A stretch of 64,000 nucleotides of DNA from a virus. Lineage: Duplodnaviria > Caudoviricetes. Location: positions 64,001 to 128,000 of IMG/VR virus record IMGVR_UViG_2974670102_000001; one strand, given 5' to 3'. Both the position numbers and the translations under genes were made by a program. Below the pieces are notes generated by a model. That model ran no database searches. It worked only from the letters and a program-made list of their open reading frames with translations, and had not been told where the DNA came from. This document shows positions 50,635 to 57,568 of the stretch, in pieces. Every line of letters begins with the position of its first letter. Position 1 is the stretch's first letter.

Positions 50635-51071
50635 TGCCGATCTACAGAGAAGGTATCGATCTTGACCAGTATGTCTCGACTTGGGACGAACCGGACAGCG
50701 TTGAGGGTTTAGGCTACTGCTACCGATACACGGACGTGAAGTACAGTCCGGGTGTAGACGAGTGGGATGATCCGCTTCCACGCTCGCCCGGGACCCACTT
50801 GGGCATTCACGTGCACGAATACAAGGTGCTGCGTGAAACCAAGTGCGGCTTCTGGTTCTACGACACTTACGAGGGCCGTGAGCGCTTCATCAACAACTCG
50901 TGGACCAAGAAGCATGCGCTCCGTTCGAAGGAAGCGGCACGCGATTCGTATATCGCGCGCAAGGAAAAGCAGATCACGCTGCTCAAGCGTCAGATAATCG
51001 ACGCCGAAGAGTTCTTGCGCATGGCCCGTGACCAACAAGCGCGCGGCGTCGCCCAATCTATCTGGAGGTAA
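50634..51071 (+). CDS. hypothetical protein
   Basis: Coupled ORF. Confidence 0.7.
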   Translation: MPIYREGIDLDQYVSTWDEPDSVEGLGYCYRYTDVKYSPGVDEWDDPLPRSPGTHLGIHVHEYKVLRETKCGFWFYDTYEGRERFINNSWTKKHALRSKEAARDSYIARKEKQITLLKRQIIDAEEFLRMARDQQARGVAQSIWR

Positions 51072-51072
51072 C

Positions 51073-51483
51073 ATGGGTCTGGAATACTACGCACTGAACC
51101 ACGCACGCGCCGAAGCCGTGTCGTTGGGTCGCCTCGGCTTTCGCTTCGACGCGTTGCTGAACGTGACGGACCAAGCGGAGTTCGAGCGTGCGTGTTTCGA
51201 ATCGCTGGTCGCGTCCGGTTTCGACTATGCACGCGCTGCCGAGTTCGCACACGACTTCTACGATTTCGGGGCCGACGAAATATGGAACGACGGACAGGAC
51301 GTGTACGAATATTTCTCGTGCTACCGCGTGGTCGACGCGCTCGACCACGAAGAGATCGGGAGCAAGCTCGGTGACTACTTCGTGCGGTCCGGTATGCTTC
51401 CGGTCGAGGCCCTGAGTCTGCGTCACCCGCGCGTGCAGATTGTGCTGGGCCGAGCCAAGATCACGCAACCCAATTTGAATTGA
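51073..51483 (+). CDS. hypothetical protein
   Basis: GGAGGT RBS before MGLEYY. Confidence 0.7.
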   Translation: MGLEYYALNHARAEAVSLGRLGFRFDALLNVTDQAEFERACFESLVASGFDYARAAEFAHDFYDFGADEIWNDGQDVYEYFSCYRVVDALDHEEIGSKLGDYFVRSGMLPVEALSLRHPRVQIVLGRAKITQPNLN

Positions 51484-51487
51484 CCTG

Positions 51488-51516
51488 TTGACGGTGTAGT
51501 AAAGACAGCGTATAGT
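51488..51516 (+). promoter_or_regulatory. tRNA-array promoter: sigma70-type with embedded GTAGTAAAG motif
   Basis: TTGACG-GTGTAGTAAAGACAGCG-TATAGT, 9 nt before first tRNA. Confidence 0.7.
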
Positions 51517-51525
51517 TCAGGACTC

Positions 51526-51602
51526 GGGCGGTTAGCTCAGGGGTTAGCAGCGTTCGGCTCATAACCGAGGGGTCGCGGGTTCGAATCCCGCACCGCCCAC
51601 CA
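51526..51602 (+). tRNA. tRNA with CAT anticodon (Ile2-like or elongator Met)
   Basis: GGGCGGT/ACCGCCC acceptor, loop CTCATAA, GTTCGAATC, encoded CCA. Confidence 0.9.
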
Positions 51603-51658
51603 CACAGAATAGGAGGCAATCATGAGTAGATTCTAGTGAACCAACTGGAGGTGTTCTC

Positions 51659-51946
51659 ATGAAAGCAAAAGCGTTTTACCATCGTGTTTGTAACTACGGC
51701 CCGGGCGGCTACCACTGCCCGTGCTGTGGTCCCGCACCGAGCATGCGTCGTAAGGAGCGTCAGCAACAACGACGCAAGTTCCATCGACTGCTTGACGTTC
51801 TGGACAAGTTTGACACCGAAGTCGAAATCGAATACGACAACCTCGTGCTCAACGATTTCGACGACGAGCGTCACGACTACTACAACGGCTGGGGCGGTGA
51901 TCCCAGCCTGCACGATGAGTGGAAGGATTGGAAGAAGGCAGCTTGA
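51659..51946 (+). CDS. small protein with GPGGxxCxCC motif, Arg-rich then acidic
   Basis: GGAGGT RBS; YGPGGYHCPCCGP. Confidence 0.75.
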   Translation: MKAKAFYHRVCNYGPGGYHCPCCGPAPSMRRKERQQQRRKFHRLLDVLDKFDTEVEIEYDNLVLNDFDDERHDYYNGWGGDPSLHDEWKDWKKAA

Positions 51947-52010
51947 CCGTACTGCACCGCAAAGCCTTAGATGCGGTGTGCCGCGAGAACGTGAGCGGTG
52001 CAGTGCACCT

Positions 52011-52096
52011 GCCCGGGTGGCGGAATTGCTAGACGCGACGGACTCAAAATCCGTTGGCCCTAGGCCGTGTGGGTTGGAGTCCCACCCCGGGCACCA
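52011..52096 (+). tRNA. tRNA-Leu(CAA)
   Basis: GCCCGGG acceptor, ACGGA-CTCAAAA-TCCGT, long variable arm, CCA; atypical T-loop TTGGAGT. Confidence 0.88.
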
Positions 52097-52098
52097 TC

Positions 52099-52137
52099 GC
52101 GAGGGTGGCGAAATTGGTAGACGTGGCGAAATTGGTA
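52099..52137 (+). pseudogene. 5' half of a split tRNA-Leu with 15-bp D-arm duplication
   Basis: GCGAGGGTGGCGAAATTGGTAGAC then GTGGCGAAATTGGTA repeated. Confidence 0.8.
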
Positions 52138-52177
52138 ATCCCCAATTTTATTTCAGTAACCAACGTGGAGAAGATTC

Positions 52178-52888
52178 ATGCTAGAACTGAAAAACGACAT
52201 GCCGATTTTGGCCAAGAAGTTGTCCGGTGTGTATGGTCACGAGATTCGTATCATCGGGCCGTACGTGGACAAGAGAAACGGGCGTAAGCTCGTGGACATA
52301 AAGGGTGCGCCCCGTTCCTCGGGAATTAACAAAACCGTGCAGCTTGCACGTGCGCGCCTAGAAGTAAAGCTTGGTCGACGCCTTGTCGATGACGAGACTG
52401 TCGACCACAAGAACAACGATTGCACGGATGACCGTCCGAGCAATCTTCAGTTGCTGACGCACGCAGAGAACTCGGCAAAGCAGACGAAGGAAACGCGTAG
52501 TCGCTCGGCTGAAGCGTCTCGCACCGCCGAGGCGCGTTCCGCTAACAGCAAACGCAATACAGGTGAGAAGAATCAAGCTGCCGTCCTTACCGATACTGAA
52601 GTGAAAAGGTTTCGCACACTTTTCAGTAAGGGTAAAATGACGGTCAAGCAAATCGAAGATGCGTCGGAGTTGACAAATCGTTCGGTTCGTAATATGCTTG
52701 ACGGCCTGTCGTACAAAACGGCAGGCGGACCGCTCCGCATAGCAGGCTCTGTTGGTCGCGCATCCTCGTTGTCAGAGAAGCACAGGCAGTACATAGCGAA
52801 TCACGCAGAACTGTCAGCCGCGCAGATTGCAGAAGAACTTGACGTGAGTAGGTATGCAGTGATACGATACCGACGCACGCTTAACTAA
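52178..52888 (+). CDS. HNH homing endonuclease with C-terminal HTH modules
   Basis: ARARLEVKLGRRL...VDHKNNDCTDDRPSNLQLLTHAEN. Confidence 0.88.
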   Translation: MLELKNDMPILAKKLSGVYGHEIRIIGPYVDKRNGRKLVDIKGAPRSSGINKTVQLARARLEVKLGRRLVDDETVDHKNNDCTDDRPSNLQLLTHAENSAKQTKETRSRSAEASRTAEARSANSKRNTGEKNQAAVLTDTEVKRFRTLFSKGKMTVKQIEDASELTNRSVRNMLDGLSYKTAGGPLRIAGSVGRASSLSEKHRQYIANHAELSAAQIAEELDVSRYAVIRYRRTLN

Positions 52889-52889
52889 C

Positions 52890-52976
52890 GGGAGTGTGCT
52901 GGAATTGGTAGACGGAACGGATTTAGATTCCGTAGGCCGCAAGGTCGTGTGGGTTCGAATCCCATCACTCCCACCA
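52890..52976 (+). tRNA. tRNA-Leu(TAG)
   Basis: GGGAGTG/CACTCCC, ACGGA-TTTAGAT-TCCGT, long variable arm, CCA. Confidence 0.92.
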
Positions 52977-53006
52977 CTACACGAAATTTTAGTTAAAGGT
53001 ATTTAA

Positions 53007-53246
53007 GTGCCGCCAAGCATCGAACAGGTAAAACTTATACTCAGATCAGCAGCATTGTCTCCGAGCAGCAGTCAGTTGTCTATTTCTGGCTTTGACGATA
53101 TCATGAAGGCAGCAGAGGAAGCCTATTGTGGAGATAGCCGAGCCATGCTCACAAACGTCCGGGAAATTGCCTTGCAGTTTCCGGACAATACGATGATGAT
53201 GACGATTTTGGCGCTGTATTCTGAATCCATGCTGAGTATGCATTAA
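53007..53246 (+). CDS. hypothetical protein inside the split-tRNA insertion
   Basis: 79-aa ORF, lower GC than flanks. Confidence 0.5.
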   Translation: MPPSIEQVKLILRSAALSPSSSQLSISGFDDIMKAAEEAYCGDSRAMLTNVREIALQFPDNTMMMTILALYSESMLSMH

Positions 53247-53260
53247 GCGCAATCCCCACA

Positions 53261-53310
53261 GTCCTGCCGGTCGAAAGGCCGTGAGGGTTCGAATCCCTTT
53301 CCTCGCACCA
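53261..53310 (+). pseudogene. 3' half of the split tRNA-Leu
   Basis: Long variable arm GGTC-GAAA-GGCC, GAGGG-TTCGAAT-CCCTT, TCCTCGC-A-CCA pairs with GCGAGGG at 52099. Confidence 0.85.
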
Positions 53311-53404
53311 CTTTGGATTGTAGGCGTAAATCGAGCGGGACTTCCCCACCCACTCGATTAGGTATGGTACACCTTATAGACCGTCGCCTACAATCCAAAG
53401 TGGT
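53307..53404 (+). ncRNA. candidate structured RNA closed by a perfect 20-bp stem
   Basis: ACCACTTTGGATTGTAGGCG / CGCCTACAATCCAAAGTGGT with two internal hairpins. Confidence 0.55.
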
Positions 53405-53477
53405 TGTGGTAAAGATGTAGTGTGCTTTGCCTTTGAAGCGCGGGCGCTGTGGTTCTCAGGCCACGACAGCGCCCAAC

Positions 53478-53553
53478 GCCGGTTTAGCTCAGTTGGTAGA
53501 GCAGCGCCCTTGTAAAGCGCAGGTCACGGGTTCGAGCCCTGTAACCGGCACCA
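53478..53553 (+). tRNA. tRNA-Thr(TGT)
   Basis: GCCGGTT/AACCGGC, loop CTTGTAA, CCA; C-A mismatch at the base of the anticodon stem. Confidence 0.9.
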
Positions 53554-53574
53554 CTAAACAATAACAACGAGGTT

Positions 53575-53916
53575 GTGATGAATACGCATGAGGCTTACGA
53601 GATCGTCGATAGACTGACGCCGGTATCGGTCAGGAACCTCGAAGACGCGTACGTACGGTTCATGGAAATGGCGCTTCTGGTCGATCCACACCCGGAGACT
53701 GAAGACCGGGCCACACGGGATCGTGAGACATACACTGAATTCCTGCTACCGCCCGACGAGAACGGCAATCCCGTGATTTCGGTCCCGGGCATGCACCAGT
53801 TTCTGTCCAAGATCACGGGCCATCCACTACAAACCTGCGTAGCCTTCGACTATGTTGACTTCCATCGCGTGCACGGCACGACGGTAGAGGACGCGGAACT
53901 CGCTGGCTACGTTTAA
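53575..53916 (+). CDS. hypothetical protein
   Basis: GAGG RBS. Confidence 0.7.
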   Translation: MMNTHEAYEIVDRLTPVSVRNLEDAYVRFMEMALLVDPHPETEDRATRDRETYTEFLLPPDENGNPVISVPGMHQFLSKITGHPLQTCVAFDYVDFHRVHGTTVEDAELAGYV

Positions 53917-53925
53917 GGACGGACC

Positions 53926-54138
53926 ATGGAAGAAGACGCATACAGGTTCAGTGTGGCAGCGCTCAAAAGCGAGTACGACGCTGAACTGCTCGAACTGCGC
54001 AAGACAGTGCTTGAAGGTCGCGGTGACGTTGCTGGGTTTATCAAACTCAAGGAGTCGCTTGACTCAAGGCTGAAGGACCGCGTTAGCGCGGTTACTGGCG
54101 CACGCAGTCAAACACAGAACAAGTTGCTGTACAACTGA
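53926..54138 (+). CDS. hypothetical protein
   Basis: AAGGA RBS. Confidence 0.65.
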   Translation: MEEDAYRFSVAALKSEYDAELLELRKTVLEGRGDVAGFIKLKESLDSRLKDRVSAVTGARSQTQNKLLYN

Positions 54139-54144
54139 ACAAGA

Positions 54145-54221
54145 CTCCGCTTAGCTCAGCCCGGTAGAGTACGTGATTTGGGATCACGGGGTCGCAGGTT
54201 CAAATCCTGTAGCGGAGACCA
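54145..54221 (+). tRNA. tRNA-Pro(TGG)
   Basis: CTCCGCT/AGCGGAG, CGTGA-TTTGGGA-TCACG, CCA. Confidence 0.92.
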
Positions 54222-54239
54222 CACAACATAGGAGGTGTC

Positions 54240-54590
54240 TTGGAAACCACTTACGACTACAGCCTTACGTTCGACCTGACTGACATCATCGTGTTCGTTC
54301 TGATCGCGATCATGATCAAGATGGTCATCGACATCGTGCGTGAGCGCATGCGAATACGCAGGCTCCGACGCGACATGGGGGCAAACGGCAATCTTCCGTG
54401 CATCACGATCTCGGGTAACGACGATGTGTCGATCTCGGGTCTTGTGTACGAAGGGCGGCCCATCCCCTCGGTCGATATCAAGAACAAAGCGCTGTTCGTC
54501 GACGGTCAGTTCAAGCGCCGCCTCGCCCGCAACAGCCGTGTCTACAACCGTGGCATCGGAATCTTCGCGGACGGCAAGTACATGGGGTAA
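54240..54590 (+). CDS. single-TM membrane protein
   Basis: AGGAGGT RBS, TTG start, N-terminal hydrophobic helix. Confidence 0.7.
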   Translation: METTYDYSLTFDLTDIIVFVLIAIMIKMVIDIVRERMRIRRLRRDMGANGNLPCITISGNDDVSISGLVYEGRPIPSVDIKNKALFVDGQFKRRLARNSRVYNRGIGIFADGKYMG

Positions 54591-54594
54591 TACC

Positions 54595-55059
54595 ATGCGC
54601 AGTATCTTTCACATTTCGGTCGGCTCCGATAACTGGAACCCGACCGAGGACGAACTTGCGGGCATCGTCCGCAAGTTCAAAGAACTGGAAGCAAAGCAGG
54701 GTCAGCGTCAACAGCTTCCCGATACCCGCAAGATCATCCACATCAGTGTGGGTGCTGAGGATTGGACGCCTACCGCAGACGAACTGTTGGCCATCGTCAA
54801 TCAGTTCCAGTATGCAGACCTCGATCCGCTCGGTGGGTGGATTGCGACGCGTCACGGTATCAAAGTCACTGACATCGAGACCGCCGCACAGCCCACGCTG
54901 GTGGTGAACGGCACGACCCACGAAAGCGAGGCTCGTGCTTCGCTACGTCAGGACTCCATCGACCGGCTTGAGGCCATCCGCGAAAACCTGCGTACGTTCA
55001 AGCTGAGCACGCTCGATGTCGACACACTGATCAATCGGTTGTCGACGTATCAACTTTAA
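54595..55059 (+). CDS. protein with two tandem HISVG..W.PT.DEL repeats
   Basis: SIFHISVGSDNWNPTEDELAGIV and KIIHISVGAEDWTPTADELLAIV. Confidence 0.75.
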   Translation: MRSIFHISVGSDNWNPTEDELAGIVRKFKELEAKQGQRQQLPDTRKIIHISVGAEDWTPTADELLAIVNQFQYADLDPLGGWIATRHGIKVTDIETAAQPTLVVNGTTHESEARASLRQDSIDRLEAIRENLRTFKLSTLDVDTLINRLSTYQL

Positions 55060-55080
55060 CCGAAAAGCTTAGGACAACAA

Positions 55081-55512
55081 ATGAAACAACTCAACACGCA
55101 ACGCCGCTTCGAATGCCTGACACCGGAAGGTACATGGGTCTCCGTGCACTGGGAGCAACTGGAACCGGGCGACATGATCCGCCTCCTGCCCGCTGTCGGC
55201 ATCACCGAGGACGTTCCGCCGACCGACGTATTCGTCGTCATGGACACGCCTACCGTGAACGTGCGTTCGGTGAACGAAATCCGTGCCGAACAAGCAGCCG
55301 CAGCGCAGCGTGAAGCGCTGGCCAACACGGAAGGTGTCGATGCTATCCAAGCAGCGCAGCGCGATATCGACGCAGCCGTCGAGCAGATGAAGCCGGTAAC
55401 AGAGGCCGTGGCAAAGGTGGCGCACGCAGTAAAGGCCAAGAAGACGCCGAGCCCGAAGGTTCCGGCACCGGCACGCAAGCCGCGCACGCGCAAGGTCGCG
55501 ACGCCGAAGTAA
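55081..55512 (+). CDS. hypothetical protein with basic tail
   Basis: AGGA RBS. Confidence 0.7.
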   Translation: MKQLNTQRRFECLTPEGTWVSVHWEQLEPGDMIRLLPAVGITEDVPPTDVFVVMDTPTVNVRSVNEIRAEQAAAAQREALANTEGVDAIQAAQRDIDAAVEQMKPVTEAVAKVAHAVKAKKTPSPKVPAPARKPRTRKVATPK

Positions 55513-55624
55513 TGGCCGTGTAGTAAATAGGTTGGGTGAGCGCGGAAACGCAATCCCCAATTTGAGTTGTACAGAAAACTAGTGCTGGTTGCCGGATGCA
55601 GTTGTTACCCGGAACAGCACACGC

Positions 55625-55714
55625 GGATGGGTGCCCGAGTGGCTAAAGGGGGCAGACTGTAAATCTGCCGGGCCTCAGTGTCCTACGTTGGTTCGAATCC
55701 AACCTCATCCACCA
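55625..55714 (+). tRNA. tRNA-Tyr(GTA)
   Basis: GGATGGG/CTCATCC, GCAGA-CTGTAAA-TCTGC, long variable arm, CCA. Confidence 0.93.
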
Positions 55715-55767
55715 GAACATAAGCAGGAGCCCTGAGCATCAGGGCATCAGGGCAACAAGGAAAAGCA

Positions 55768-56049
55768 ATGCCGATTAAGCCGCTGTATGACAAGGTGGTG
55801 GTGCGTACCACCGACACAGACCGTACGACTGTAGGGGGCATCGTGATCCCCGCTGCTTCGCTCAAGGCGAATCAGGCTGTCGTGGTCGCTGTCGGTGACG
55901 GCCACCTTATGCAAGACGGTACGCTTCGACCGCTGTCCGTGAAGGCAGGCGACGTTGTGTACCTCTCGCATGAAGGCTCCGAGATCGAAGTCAACGGTGA
56001 AAAGCTTCGCGTCTTCATCGAAGGCGATCTGATAGGAGTCCTCAACTAA
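55768..56049 (+). CDS. groES: GroES/Cpn10 co-chaperonin
   Basis: IKPLYDKVVV, TVGGIVIP, VVAVGDG, PLSVKAGDVV, EGDLIGV. Confidence 0.93.
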   Translation: MPIKPLYDKVVVRTTDTDRTTVGGIVIPAASLKANQAVVVAVGDGHLMQDGTLRPLSVKAGDVVYLSHEGSEIEVNGEKLRVFIEGDLIGVLN

Positions 56050-56058
56050 GCAGTACAT

Positions 56059-56135
56059 TCCCCGTGAGCAAGCTAGGCGACTGCACCGGACTGTTAATCC
56101 GGCATTGCGTGGTTCGAATCCACGACGGGGAGCCA
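56059..56135 (+). tRNA. tRNA-Asn(GTT)
   Basis: TCCCCGT/ACGGGGA, CCGGA-CTGTTAA-TCCGG, G-CCA. Confidence 0.9.
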
Positions 56136-56139
56136 ATCA

Positions 56140-56242
56140 TGAATAGGTCATGAGTAAGGCAGATCACTCAATCCGGAAACTCAAAAGGTAATCCGGGTAG
56201 CAATGAGCATCCTGTAAGCCGAGACGATGATTGACTTATTCA
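56140..56242 (+). ncRNA. candidate structured spacer RNA
   Basis: 11-bp closing stem TGAATAGGTCA/TGACTTATTCA with internal hairpins; fills the whole tRNA-Asn to tRNA-Phe spacer. Confidence 0.5.
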
Positions 56243-56244
56243 GA

Positions 56245-56320
56245 GCGCGGGTAGCTCAGTTGGTAGAGCACCGGACTGAAAATCCGGGTGTCGCTGGTTC
56301 GAGTCCAGCCCTGCGCACCA
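56245..56320 (+). tRNA. tRNA-Phe(GAA)
   Basis: GCGCGGG/CCTGCGC, CCGGA-CTGAAAA-TCCGG, CCA. Confidence 0.93.
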
Positions 56321-56322
56321 GC

Positions 56323-56438
56323 GTTGTGATCGAGTGAAAATCGTAGGAAGGGGCCGATTACCCTGACCGCAATCTGTAGGTGGACCGGCTGGCCCTCATC
56401 CTGCTAGTGTAGATTTTTCCCATGTGGTTTCGATCAAC
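56323..56438 (+). ncRNA. candidate rod-shaped RNA
   Basis: Four nested stems: TGATCGAG/TTCGATCA, GAAAATC/GATTTTT, GTAGGA/TCCTGC, GGGCC/GGCCC. Confidence 0.5.
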
Positions 56439-56539
56439 TAATCATTGTGTGGTTGTAGCGCACTAAATCAGACGGCCGGGCTCCGGAGCCCGCGTACCAT
56501 ACCACCCCGGATGGAAACCGTTGAATATTCCGGGTCGAT

Positions 56540-56616
56540 AGGGGTGTAGCCAAGTTGGTTAAGGCAACGGATTTTGATTCCGTCATGCGTAGGTTCGAAT
56601 CCTACCGCCCCTTCCA
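56540..56616 (+). tRNA. tRNA-Gln(TTG)
   Basis: AGGGGTG/CGCCCCT, ACGGA-TTTTGAT-TCCGT, CCA. Confidence 0.92.
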
Positions 56617-56694
56617 GAACACGCAGTACTGCTGCCTCCCCCTGCGGTGAAATCCCGAAGGACTTGCGGGCAGCATCGAATAATCAGGACTCCA

Positions 56695-57021
56695 ATGAAC
56701 GCAATCAAGAACGCGACCGCAACAACCTTCGACGCAGATGTCATGAAGGGTGAAGGTCTCATCCTCGTAGACTTCTGGGCACCGTGGTGCGGCCCGTGCA
56801 AGATGCTGGCTCCGACACTGGACAAGATCGCACAAGAGCGCGACGACCTCCAGATCGTGAAGGTCAACGTCGACGAGGAATCCGAGAACGAAGTCGCAAA
56901 GACGTTCGGAGTCCGTGGTATTCCGTCACTCATGCTCGTGCGAAACGGTGCAGTGATCGCGCAACGCGCTGGAGCACTGGCCAAGTCGCAACTGGAAGCA
57001 TGGATCGACGCGAACAAGTAA
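56695..57021 (+). CDS. trxA: thioredoxin
   Basis: LVDFWAPWCGPCKML, VKVNVDE, GVRGIP. Confidence 0.95.
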   Translation: MNAIKNATATTFDADVMKGEGLILVDFWAPWCGPCKMLAPTLDKIAQERDDLQIVKVNVDEESENEVAKTFGVRGIPSLMLVRNGAVIAQRAGALAKSQLEAWIDANK

Positions 57022-57029
57022 CAAGCAGT

Positions 57030-57102
57030 CCTGAGTTAGCTTAGTGGCAAAGCAGCCGGGGTCTGGCGATGGACTACGGTTCGATTCCGTAACTCGGGGC
57101 CA
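57030..57102 (+). ncRNA. tRNA-like RNA with collapsed anticodon arm
   Basis: Intact acceptor CCTGAGT/ACTCGGG-G-CCA, D arm and T arm (TACGG-TTCGATT-CCGTA); anticodon arm is GCCGG-GGT-CTGGC. Confidence 0.75.
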
Positions 57103-57111
57103 AGATTTCTG

Positions 57112-57222
57112 CACCGTGGGTTGACCTCCACGGTGATCCGCTAGACGCGGAGGGTCACATCTGGGTATTGCACATGCCCGCTGGCGGTCACCAGCACCTC
57201 CTTGTCGCGCGACGACCGCGAT
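57112..57222 (+). ncRNA. candidate pseudoknotted RNA
   Basis: CACCGTGG/CCACGGTG hairpin whose loop TGACCT is complementary to GGGTCA at 57152; several more hairpins follow. Confidence 0.45.
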
Positions 57223-57287
57223 TAATGGGCTACGTCGTATAAGTGGTTGGTTGTCCTGAGCGCACTAGGGCGTTCGGGGTAGTGCAG

Positions 57288-57331
57288 AAGGGTGATAGTC
57301 TGGGTAACCGGTCTATCACCCTTTTGTTTTT
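57288..57331 (+). terminator. terminator ending the tRNA array
   Basis: AAGGGTGATAG...CTATCACCCTT then TTGTTTTT. Confidence 0.75.
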
Positions 57332-57379
57332 GGTTCGTGTTATACTGAGTAGGTAGTAAATAACCAAAGGAGGTGTCAA

Positions 57380-57568
57380 ATGAAACAAGTGATGATATTG
57401 GCGTCCCTGTTTCTGGCAAGCCTCGTGCTCACAATCGAGTTGCGGCTACACCAGATACCGTACTCGGACCTCGTGATGACGGCGTACACGCTGATCTTCT
57501 TCGCGGTCTGGGCGATGCTCGACTTCAAGGCCATGCGGAGGAAACAGGGTGACAGCAATTCGTATTGA
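57380..57568 (+). CDS. small two-TM membrane protein
   Basis: AAGGAGGT RBS; two hydrophobic helices. Confidence 0.7.
   Translation: MKQVMILASLFLASLVLTIELRLHQIPYSDLVMTAYTLIFFAVWAMLDFKAMRRKQGDSNSY

Follow-up and report, generated by a model that had tools for sequence, protein, structure and literature searches.

A tRNA-Leu gene of a Sarumanvirus jumbo phage is interrupted by a probable homing-endonuclease cassette that carries a substitute tRNA

Homing endonucleases normally reside in introns, inteins or intergenic gaps, positions that spare the targeted gene, which therefore stays unbroken. Phages T4 and T6 encode SegB, a free-standing GIY-YIG homing endonuclease located in a tRNA gene cluster (PMC2330249, PMC13096335), which cleaves tRNA genes internally in phages without SegB and brings the adjacent tRNA genes along into the recipient (PMC2330249). 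As cited in the same paper (2004 work, reference 18 in PMC2330249), phage T5 has the site-specific endonuclease open reading frames (ORFs) F-TflI, F-TflII as well as F-TflIV in its tRNA region. Outside phages, fungal mitochondrial mobile ORFs (mORFs) create gene hybrids, as in atp6 of Allomyces macrogynus and in atp6, atp9, cox2 and nad3 of Glomus (PMC3630166), and group I introns, some of which contain homing endonuclease ORFs, occur in tRNA genes, among them bacterial tRNA-Leu(UAA) (PMC3984707). Here we describe a locus at which a phage tRNA gene is itself broken. Within a 64,000-nucleotide stretch of a Sarumanvirus jumbo phage (the whole stretch analysed, hereafter the window; bases 64001-128000 of the 262,653-bp virus record IMGVR_UViG_2974670102_000001; 58% GC), an HNH endonuclease gene and a complete tRNA-Leu(TAG) gene, which we call the cargo tRNA, lie between two stubs of a resident tRNA-Leu gene. 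We consider it probable that this resident gene, of the type that reads CUN codons, was invaded by a homing-endonuclease cassette that replaces its anticodon arm and brings a substitute tRNA. Such an element would break a dispensable but highly conserved gene and supply its own replacement.

The anatomy of the two stubs is that of the two ends of a single tRNA gene. The 5′ stub holds the acceptor strand GCGAGGG, T8 and G9, the D stem and loop, and the first two bases of the 3′ D-stem strand, while the 3′ stub holds the 3′ anticodon-stem strand (CCTGC), a 15-nt variable arm with a GAAA-capped stem, the T arm and the acceptor strand, ending in TCCTCGC-A-CCA (A73 and CCA). As the initial annotation of this DNA had claimed, the acceptor strands of the two halves are complementary, and we find that they pair at 7/7 positions through six Watson-Crick pairs and one G-U pair at 7-66. 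Its further statement that only the anticodon region is missing needs a correction: the 3′ anticodon-stem strand is retained, and what is absent from the resident gene is about nt 25-36/38, that is, about 12-14 nt and not the whole arm. A CAG/AG that precedes the 3′ stub perhaps represents the last anticodon bases. When the stubs were joined in silico at 1,824 breakpoint pairs, ARAGORN accepted hundreds of the products with arbitrary anticodons, and such joins, being non-discriminating, tell us no more than that the arms (acceptor, D and T) fit together. More informative are the stub pairs found at related loci, which are described below. In the window and at loci L022, L027/28, L039, L040, L050, L062 and L073, the paired acceptors are locus-specific and mutually complementary. 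Because acceptor strands differ among loci yet stay complementary within each locus, these sequences support the derivation of both window stubs from one disrupted tRNA-Leu gene. The initial annotation had allowed that relatives might trace the halves to two different tRNA genes; what they display is acceptor co-variation in at least six loci besides the window. Identity to the cargo tRNA is only 77% for the 5′ stub and 82% for the 3′ stub, and the stubs are therefore not copies of the cargo.

The decoding class of the resident gene can be approached from the stubs themselves. The 5′ stub matches, at 25/25 positions, the 5′ ends of the bacterial-type tRNA-Leu(TAG) genes of loci L002-L007. An in-register alignment is obtained between the 3′ stub and tRNA-Leu genes that read CUN codons (anticodons TAG and GAG), which share with it the CCTG anticodon-stem strand and the 15-nt length of the variable arm. 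This weakly suggests that the broken gene was a CUN-type tRNA-Leu, and the TAG anticodon of the cargo would therefore make it a like-for-like substitute.

The nuclease gene occurs once in the genome and is preceded by a GGAG-type ribosome-binding site 7 nt upstream. Its product matches Pfam HNH_3 (PF13392; 29.6 bits, cut-off 24.8) and 15 PHROG HNH families; these HNH families are the only nuclease families in Pfam and PHROGs that match, and no GIY-YIG domain was found. The HNH motif of the form D-H...N...N (D76-H77, N89 and N98) is invariant in alignment A1. Two helix-turn-helix modules follow at the C terminus, one of them reaching the HTH_11 model (25.7 bits, cut-off 25) and the second remaining below threshold (TrmB, 24.1 bits, cut-off 25.6). 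An AlphaFold2 model has a predicted template modelling score (pTM) of 0.28, with helical bundles at residues 139-174 and 200-235. A Foldseek search with this model returned weak bipartite helix-turn-helix matches alone, too poor for a fold assignment, and a sequence search of solved structures with the protein returned no match. We also considered the 5′ stub as a translational control element for the nuclease and rejected this idea, given that the 5′ untranslated region of the HNH gene is no more structured than shuffled sequences (z -1.4).

The cargo tRNA begins 2 nt past the stop codon of the HNH gene and has A73 and an encoded CCA. Compared across loci, 5′ stubs keep the consensus D arm, and cargo tRNAs depart from it in 8/9 loci; an altered D arm would be the expected look of a cargo resistant to the nuclease. 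The cargo of three cassettes belongs to an unusual tRNA type, seen at L021:10575-10661, L022:3340-3422, L023:2778-2860 and L062:~330-400, which has TAG in the anticodon loop (TAA in L062), a D loop about 5 bases longer than is usual, and a short variable region instead of a class II arm. ARAGORN either miscalls these as Ile(AAT) or misses them, and the Rfam tRNA model does not report the one in L022, the sole copy of the type among the loci scanned with it.

Among 5.8 billion proteins we found six homologues of the HNH protein (P0002-P0007; 48-59% identity), encoded on independent metagenome contigs (loci L021, L022, L023-26, L027/28 and L029). The order 5′ tRNA-Leu stub, HNH gene and, within a few bases, a tRNA with anticodon TAG is present in 6/6 of these closest homologues, which supports the view that nuclease and tRNA recur as one unit and that the layout is neither chance nor a one-off. 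A 3′ stub lies 12-22 nt after the cargo tRNA in L022 and L027/28; it is absent in L023 and was not found in L021. The extent of the stubs varies by locus, with insertion points ranging from the D loop to nt 31/32. In L027 the stubs reproduce a bacterial tRNA-Leu(TAG) almost base for base, minus nt 29-42, and in L029 the stub combines target-like with cargo-like sequence in one chimera, direct evidence that stub and cargo have exchanged sequence. In two independent samples (L027:986-1594 and L028:54-660) the HNH reading frame is lost after about residue 126 through a frameshift while stubs and cargo are intact, a pattern that fits the decay phase of a homing element. Separately, L022 has a second, different HNH ORF (198 aa; L022:3492-4173) directly after the first cassette, flanked by 5′ and 3′ stubs of a class II tRNA with complementary acceptors, and in two loci a tRNA stub supplies or directly abuts the start codon of the nuclease (L089:13-40 and L027:958-990), the ATG of L089 lying inside the acceptor strand.

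The association extends to a wider family. With the seven proteins aligned as query, a scan of contigs from viruses and metagenomes yielded 62 further loci, in 39 of which a called tRNA abuts or overlaps an ORF end; this tRNA is a tRNA-Leu in 32 of the 39. No tRNA-Leu adjoins the locus of an ORF95 homologue, L094. In a maximum-likelihood tree the window HNH protein groups with those of L039, L021, L022, L023 and L029, with a support of 98 in the Shimodaira-Hasegawa-like approximate likelihood-ratio test (SH-aLRT), and this clade is nested in a 39-row clade that is mostly linked to tRNA-Leu, the most distant rows having no nearby tRNA. The forms taken by the cassette make a series. At one end is L039, where a bare ORF without cargo lies between the 5′ anticodon-stem strand and the intact anticodon loop of a tRNA-Leu(GAG). 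Next come the hybrid forms L042 and L089, where the 5′ end of the tRNA downstream is present twice, the extra copy being the upstream stub, so that this tRNA is whole again, and then the window, L022, L027 and L040, where the two stubs enclose a tRNA-Leu that is complete and different. The L039 ORF is an HNH ORF of 205 codons (L039:2466-3190) whose TGA stop overlaps the anticodon loop and which matches no intron model; either the tRNA gene there is dead or the ORF is removed by some route. Two of these loci have other features nearby, a transfer-messenger RNA gene cut by the locus end (L039:5323-5582) and, downstream of the cassette in L040 (L040:3535-3720), a 74-nt match to bacterial large-subunit ribosomal RNA together with a weak hammerhead-like match.

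We then compared the window with its nearest relative. An exact look-up of window proteins in a 15-billion-protein collection found 13 present, and 11/13 share a 90% cluster with one sister genome, the named partners being from Burkholderia phage BcepSaruman. The HNH protein and the 79-codon ORF of the insert (ORF79) are the only singletons among the 13, so that 11/11 of the other tested proteins have a BcepSaruman partner, and no weaker homologue of either protein was found from the BcepSaruman genome. From these protein data, BcepSaruman appears to be without both cassette proteins. The window phage is very likely Burkholderia phage BcepSauron or a near-identical phage, and BcepSauron and BcepSaruman have an average nucleotide identity of 93% (10.64898/2026.10.21.760668). 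BcepSaruman, at 263,735 bp, exceeds the window record by 1,082 bp in spite of its apparent lack of the roughly 1.1-kb cassette, and other insertions or deletions must therefore separate the two genomes. Megablast and tblastn searches of a cultured-phage set that excludes near relatives returned no match. Exact-pattern scans of viral contigs with the 3′ stub and with the junction of tRNA-Leu(CAA) and stub found no sister phage, the 5′-stub pattern matched only bacterial-type tRNA-Leu(TAG) genes in viral contigs, a scan of genome contigs with a T arm plus acceptor pattern matched only Firmicutes tRNA-Leu(GAG) genes, and searches with single neighbouring proteins found no related locus.

Composition sets the insert apart as well. 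GC content at third codon positions (GC3) is 57.8% in the HNH gene and 53.7% in ORF79, compared to 64-80% in neighbouring genes, and the overall GC of ORF79, at 47%, is the lowest in the region. The insert looks foreign in origin because of this low GC3. ORF79 matches nothing in Pfam or PHROGs and has no homologue among the 5.8 billion proteins; its coding status is uncertain, and among the cassettes compared it is an extra of the window phage only.

Every element listed in the initial annotation (stubs, repeats, HNH gene, tRNA-Leu(TAG) and ORF79) lies where that annotation had placed it, and the positions are collected in Table 1.

Table 1. Positions, in window coordinates, of the disrupted tRNA-Leu gene, its insert and adjoining features
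Feature	Position	Strand	Basis
tRNA-Leu(CAA), intact upstream neighbour, outside cassette	52011..52096	+	ARAGORN; Rfam tRNA 54.4 bits
5′ stub of disrupted tRNA-Leu, 25 nt	52099..52123	+	Sequence; acceptor pairing with 3′ stub
Second, truncated D-arm copy and left AATCCCCA	52123..52144	+	Repeat search
HNH_3 homing-type endonuclease gene, 236 aa	52178..52888	+	Pfam, PHROGs
Cargo tRNA-Leu(TAG), intact class II	52890..52976	+	ARAGORN; Rfam tRNA 53.8 bits
ORF79, orphan, 79 codons, GTG start	53007..53246	+	ORF listing
Right AATCCCCA copy, abutting 3′ stub	53251..53258	+	Repeat search
3′ stub of disrupted tRNA-Leu, 49 nt	~53262..53310	+	Sequence; in-register alignment with CUN-type tRNA-Leu genes
Perfect 20-bp inverted repeat, 58-nt structured spacer	53307..53404	+	Repeat search; fold z-score -6.8

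The locus belongs to a tRNA island of nine tRNA genes at 51526-56616 (ARAGORN). A promoter-like site (10/12 matches) is located at 51488-51516, just 5′ of the tRNA-Met gene, and no terminator-like site was found on the + strand through the island; because of this combination, the nuclease mRNA is probably part of a tRNA polycistron. A repeat search confirmed the D-arm duplication noted previously, a 15-nt direct repeat whose exact copies occupy 52105-52119 and 52123-52137 within an 18-nt tandem unit, as well as both exact copies of AATCCCCA, of which the left one occupies 52137-52144. Because six 8-nt repeat pairs occur in the surrounding 1.5 kb, the AATCCCCA repeat is unremarkable in itself and notable only for its position at both junctions. 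L023 likewise has a double D arm, its inner copy more decayed than that of the window, and the truncated inner copies of the window and L023 resemble the sole D-arm copy of L022. L022 and L023 share the motif CAATTTYAT after the D-arm copy, and the same short motif follows the inner copy of the window. The inner copy may thus be read as a stub carried in from an earlier target of the element, which would fit the model set out below. Downstream, the inverted repeat starts at the ACCA of the 3′ stub, occurs once in the genome and has a spacer that holds its own hairpin. Its fold is far more stable than those of shuffled sequences, and the 20-bp hairpin is predicted to bury the CCA end of the 3′ stub. 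The hairpin could be a processing element, a termination element or part of the insert.

The explanation that we favour takes the cassette to be a free-standing HNH_3 gene with C-terminal helix-turn-helix modules, an abutting tRNA-Leu(TAG) and, in the window only, an orphan ORF. The HNH protein would nick or cut a tRNA-Leu gene in the neighbourhood of its D arm or anticodon stem, and the break would be repaired from a cassette-bearing genome; between unrelated phages, tRNA sequence would be the only homology available for this repair. The recipient's 5′ part would be left upstream of the nuclease gene, and its 3′ part would be left downstream too where the right-hand join was non-homologous. 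With some 12-14 nt of the anticodon arm lost, the resident gene would as a result be dead, and decoding of CUN codons would pass to the cargo tRNA. The initial annotation had proposed a selfish destroy-and-replace element. One disrupted tRNA-Leu gene, a recurrent nuclease-plus-tRNA unit, the foreign look of the insert and the lack of its proteins in the BcepSaruman protein set all agree with that proposal; the selfish mechanism itself, with its cleavage target, repair route, cargo immunity and functional replacement, is our inference. In light of recent phage tRNA work, it is plausible that the swap of tRNAs might also evade host anticodon nucleases.

Several observations weigh against this explanation. 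The pair of AATCCCCA copies at the junctions, the tandem D-arm copy and the 14-nt deletion of the target are unlike clean homologous homing and point to an untidy join or some other mechanism. The case for cargo immunity appears weakest in the window itself, where the cargo keeps most of the consensus D loop and differs in the D stem only, and ORF79 has no explanation within a homing model. The CUN-type genes compared with the stubs were retrieved with patterns from those same stubs, which biases the assignment, the tree was a quick search with SH-aLRT support alone, and the absence of the cassette from BcepSaruman is judged from protein clusters only.

The alternative that comes nearest, though we judge it improbable, is a local rearrangement without homing, in which the stubs arose by recombination among the phage's own tRNA-Leu paralogues, or by a tandem amplification and a later deletion, and the HNH gene is a mere neighbour. 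The paralogues do share identical stretches of 12-15 nt in the D loop, and segmental amplification driven by SegB via microhomology is documented (PMC13096335). However, the stubs match the cargo too poorly to be copies of it, the insert is foreign in composition, its proteins are missing from the sister phage, and the same order recurs in many contigs with unrelated flanks. That last recurrence, in independent assemblies of different samples, also makes it scarcely credible that reads mis-joined in a repetitive tRNA island generated the repeats and stubs as an assembly artefact; short exact repeats do mark the junctions, but the genome is judged to be the complete record of a cultured phage.

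Two further explanations would keep the interrupted gene at work. In one, which we regard as quite unlikely, the stubs form a working split RNA that is kept by selection; once processed and paired along the acceptor stem, they would make a tRNA-like molecule without anticodon that serves as a decoy for host tRNA nucleases or as an RNase P guide. Acceptor complementarity and an intact T arm are kept here and in relatives whose nucleases are only ~50% identical, and the whole island is probably one transcript from the promoter-like site. Retention of the stubs would, however, follow just as well if intact genes had been invaded recently and repeatedly, their extent differs between loci, the 3′ stub is absent in L023 and was not found in L021, no complementary leader sequences adjoin the stubs in our repeat search, and the predicted hairpin would lock away the CCA end; the decoy suggested by the initial annotation thus finds no support. 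In the other, the RNA loses the insert as it would an intron, so that the resident tRNA-Leu is still made. Endonuclease-bearing group I introns are known in bacterial tRNA-Leu genes, and the ORF of L039 is bounded precisely by the 5′ anticodon-stem strand on one side and an intact anticodon loop on the other. The window, by contrast, lacks most of the anticodon loop as well as the 5′ anticodon-stem strand, and because of this no splice can rebuild its tRNA. Moreover, the inserts consist almost wholly of ORF and tRNA, and group I and group II intron models match neither in 51000-57500 of the window (E<=1) nor in five relatives (E<=0.1). We therefore hold excision as an intron to be extremely improbable.

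Within the homing-endonuclease explanation, a more tentative possibility, which we would not yet favour, is that the stubs are the cassette's own portable homology arms. The mobile unit would then consist of a 5′ tRNA-Leu stub, the HNH gene and a tRNA-Leu with an altered D arm, and this self-contained homing device could invade tRNA-Leu genes in phages of every genomic background, since universally conserved tRNA sequence would be its target and also its recombination homology. If this were true, the stacked stubs of the window and L023 would record serial invasions, and such cassettes would be a general driver of the spread and turnover of tRNA genes among unrelated phages. More broadly, the cassette offers an explanation for the movement of tRNA genes between unrelated phages and for the stubs, odd tRNAs and nuclease genes that litter phage tRNA islands. 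The window phage and its apparently cassette-free sister BcepSaruman make up an existing donor and recipient pair for a homing assay.

How the window cassette relates to described elements depends on which of its parts is compared. Split tRNAs of the Nanoarchaeum type differ from it in that the anticodon arm of the window gene is incomplete and no inverted repeat links the sequence following the 5′ stub to that preceding the 3′ stub. Group I introns resemble it as endonuclease-bearing mobile elements that interrupt a tRNA gene within its anticodon arm or close to it, but they self-splice and leave a functional tRNA, whereas the window insert has no detected ribozyme and part of the tRNA is deleted. 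With HNH_3 enzymes of the I-HmuI type the nuclease shares its layout, the HNH_3 motif at the N terminus and helix-turn-helix DNA-binding modules after it; I-HmuI, however, is intron-encoded, and the window protein has no sequence match to any solved structure. The F-Tfl genes of T5, compared here by citation alone, are similar in being endonuclease ORFs inside a phage tRNA cluster.

The logic of the cassette resembles that of the mORFs, which also enter a gene without an intron, bring a foreign copy of the part they displace and leave the native part as a dead remnant. Such a native part, kept beside a diverged foreign substitute, is what we find in the window, given the divergence between stubs and cargo and the foreign composition of the insert. 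The targets of mORFs are organelle protein genes whose C-terminal part is replaced by in-frame fusion, and their nucleases are of the LAGLIDADG or GIY-YIG families, whereas the cargo in the window stands by itself as a whole tRNA gene and the target retains both of its ends; a hybrid form does occur in L042 and L089. Break-and-replace is thus already known for fungal mitochondrial protein genes, and our full-text literature search found no description of a cassette of nuclease and tRNA lodged within a phage tRNA gene. Among phage systems, SegB is the closest working analogue, being likewise encoded by a free-standing endonuclease gene in a phage tRNA island that is statistically linked to tRNA genes across phages. 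It differs in that SegB is a GIY-YIG enzyme encoded between tRNA genes that recognizes a T-arm motif and favours no single isotype, and no stubs of a broken tRNA are described as flanking its gene, whereas the window gene encodes an HNH enzyme and lies between the stubs of one tRNA gene.

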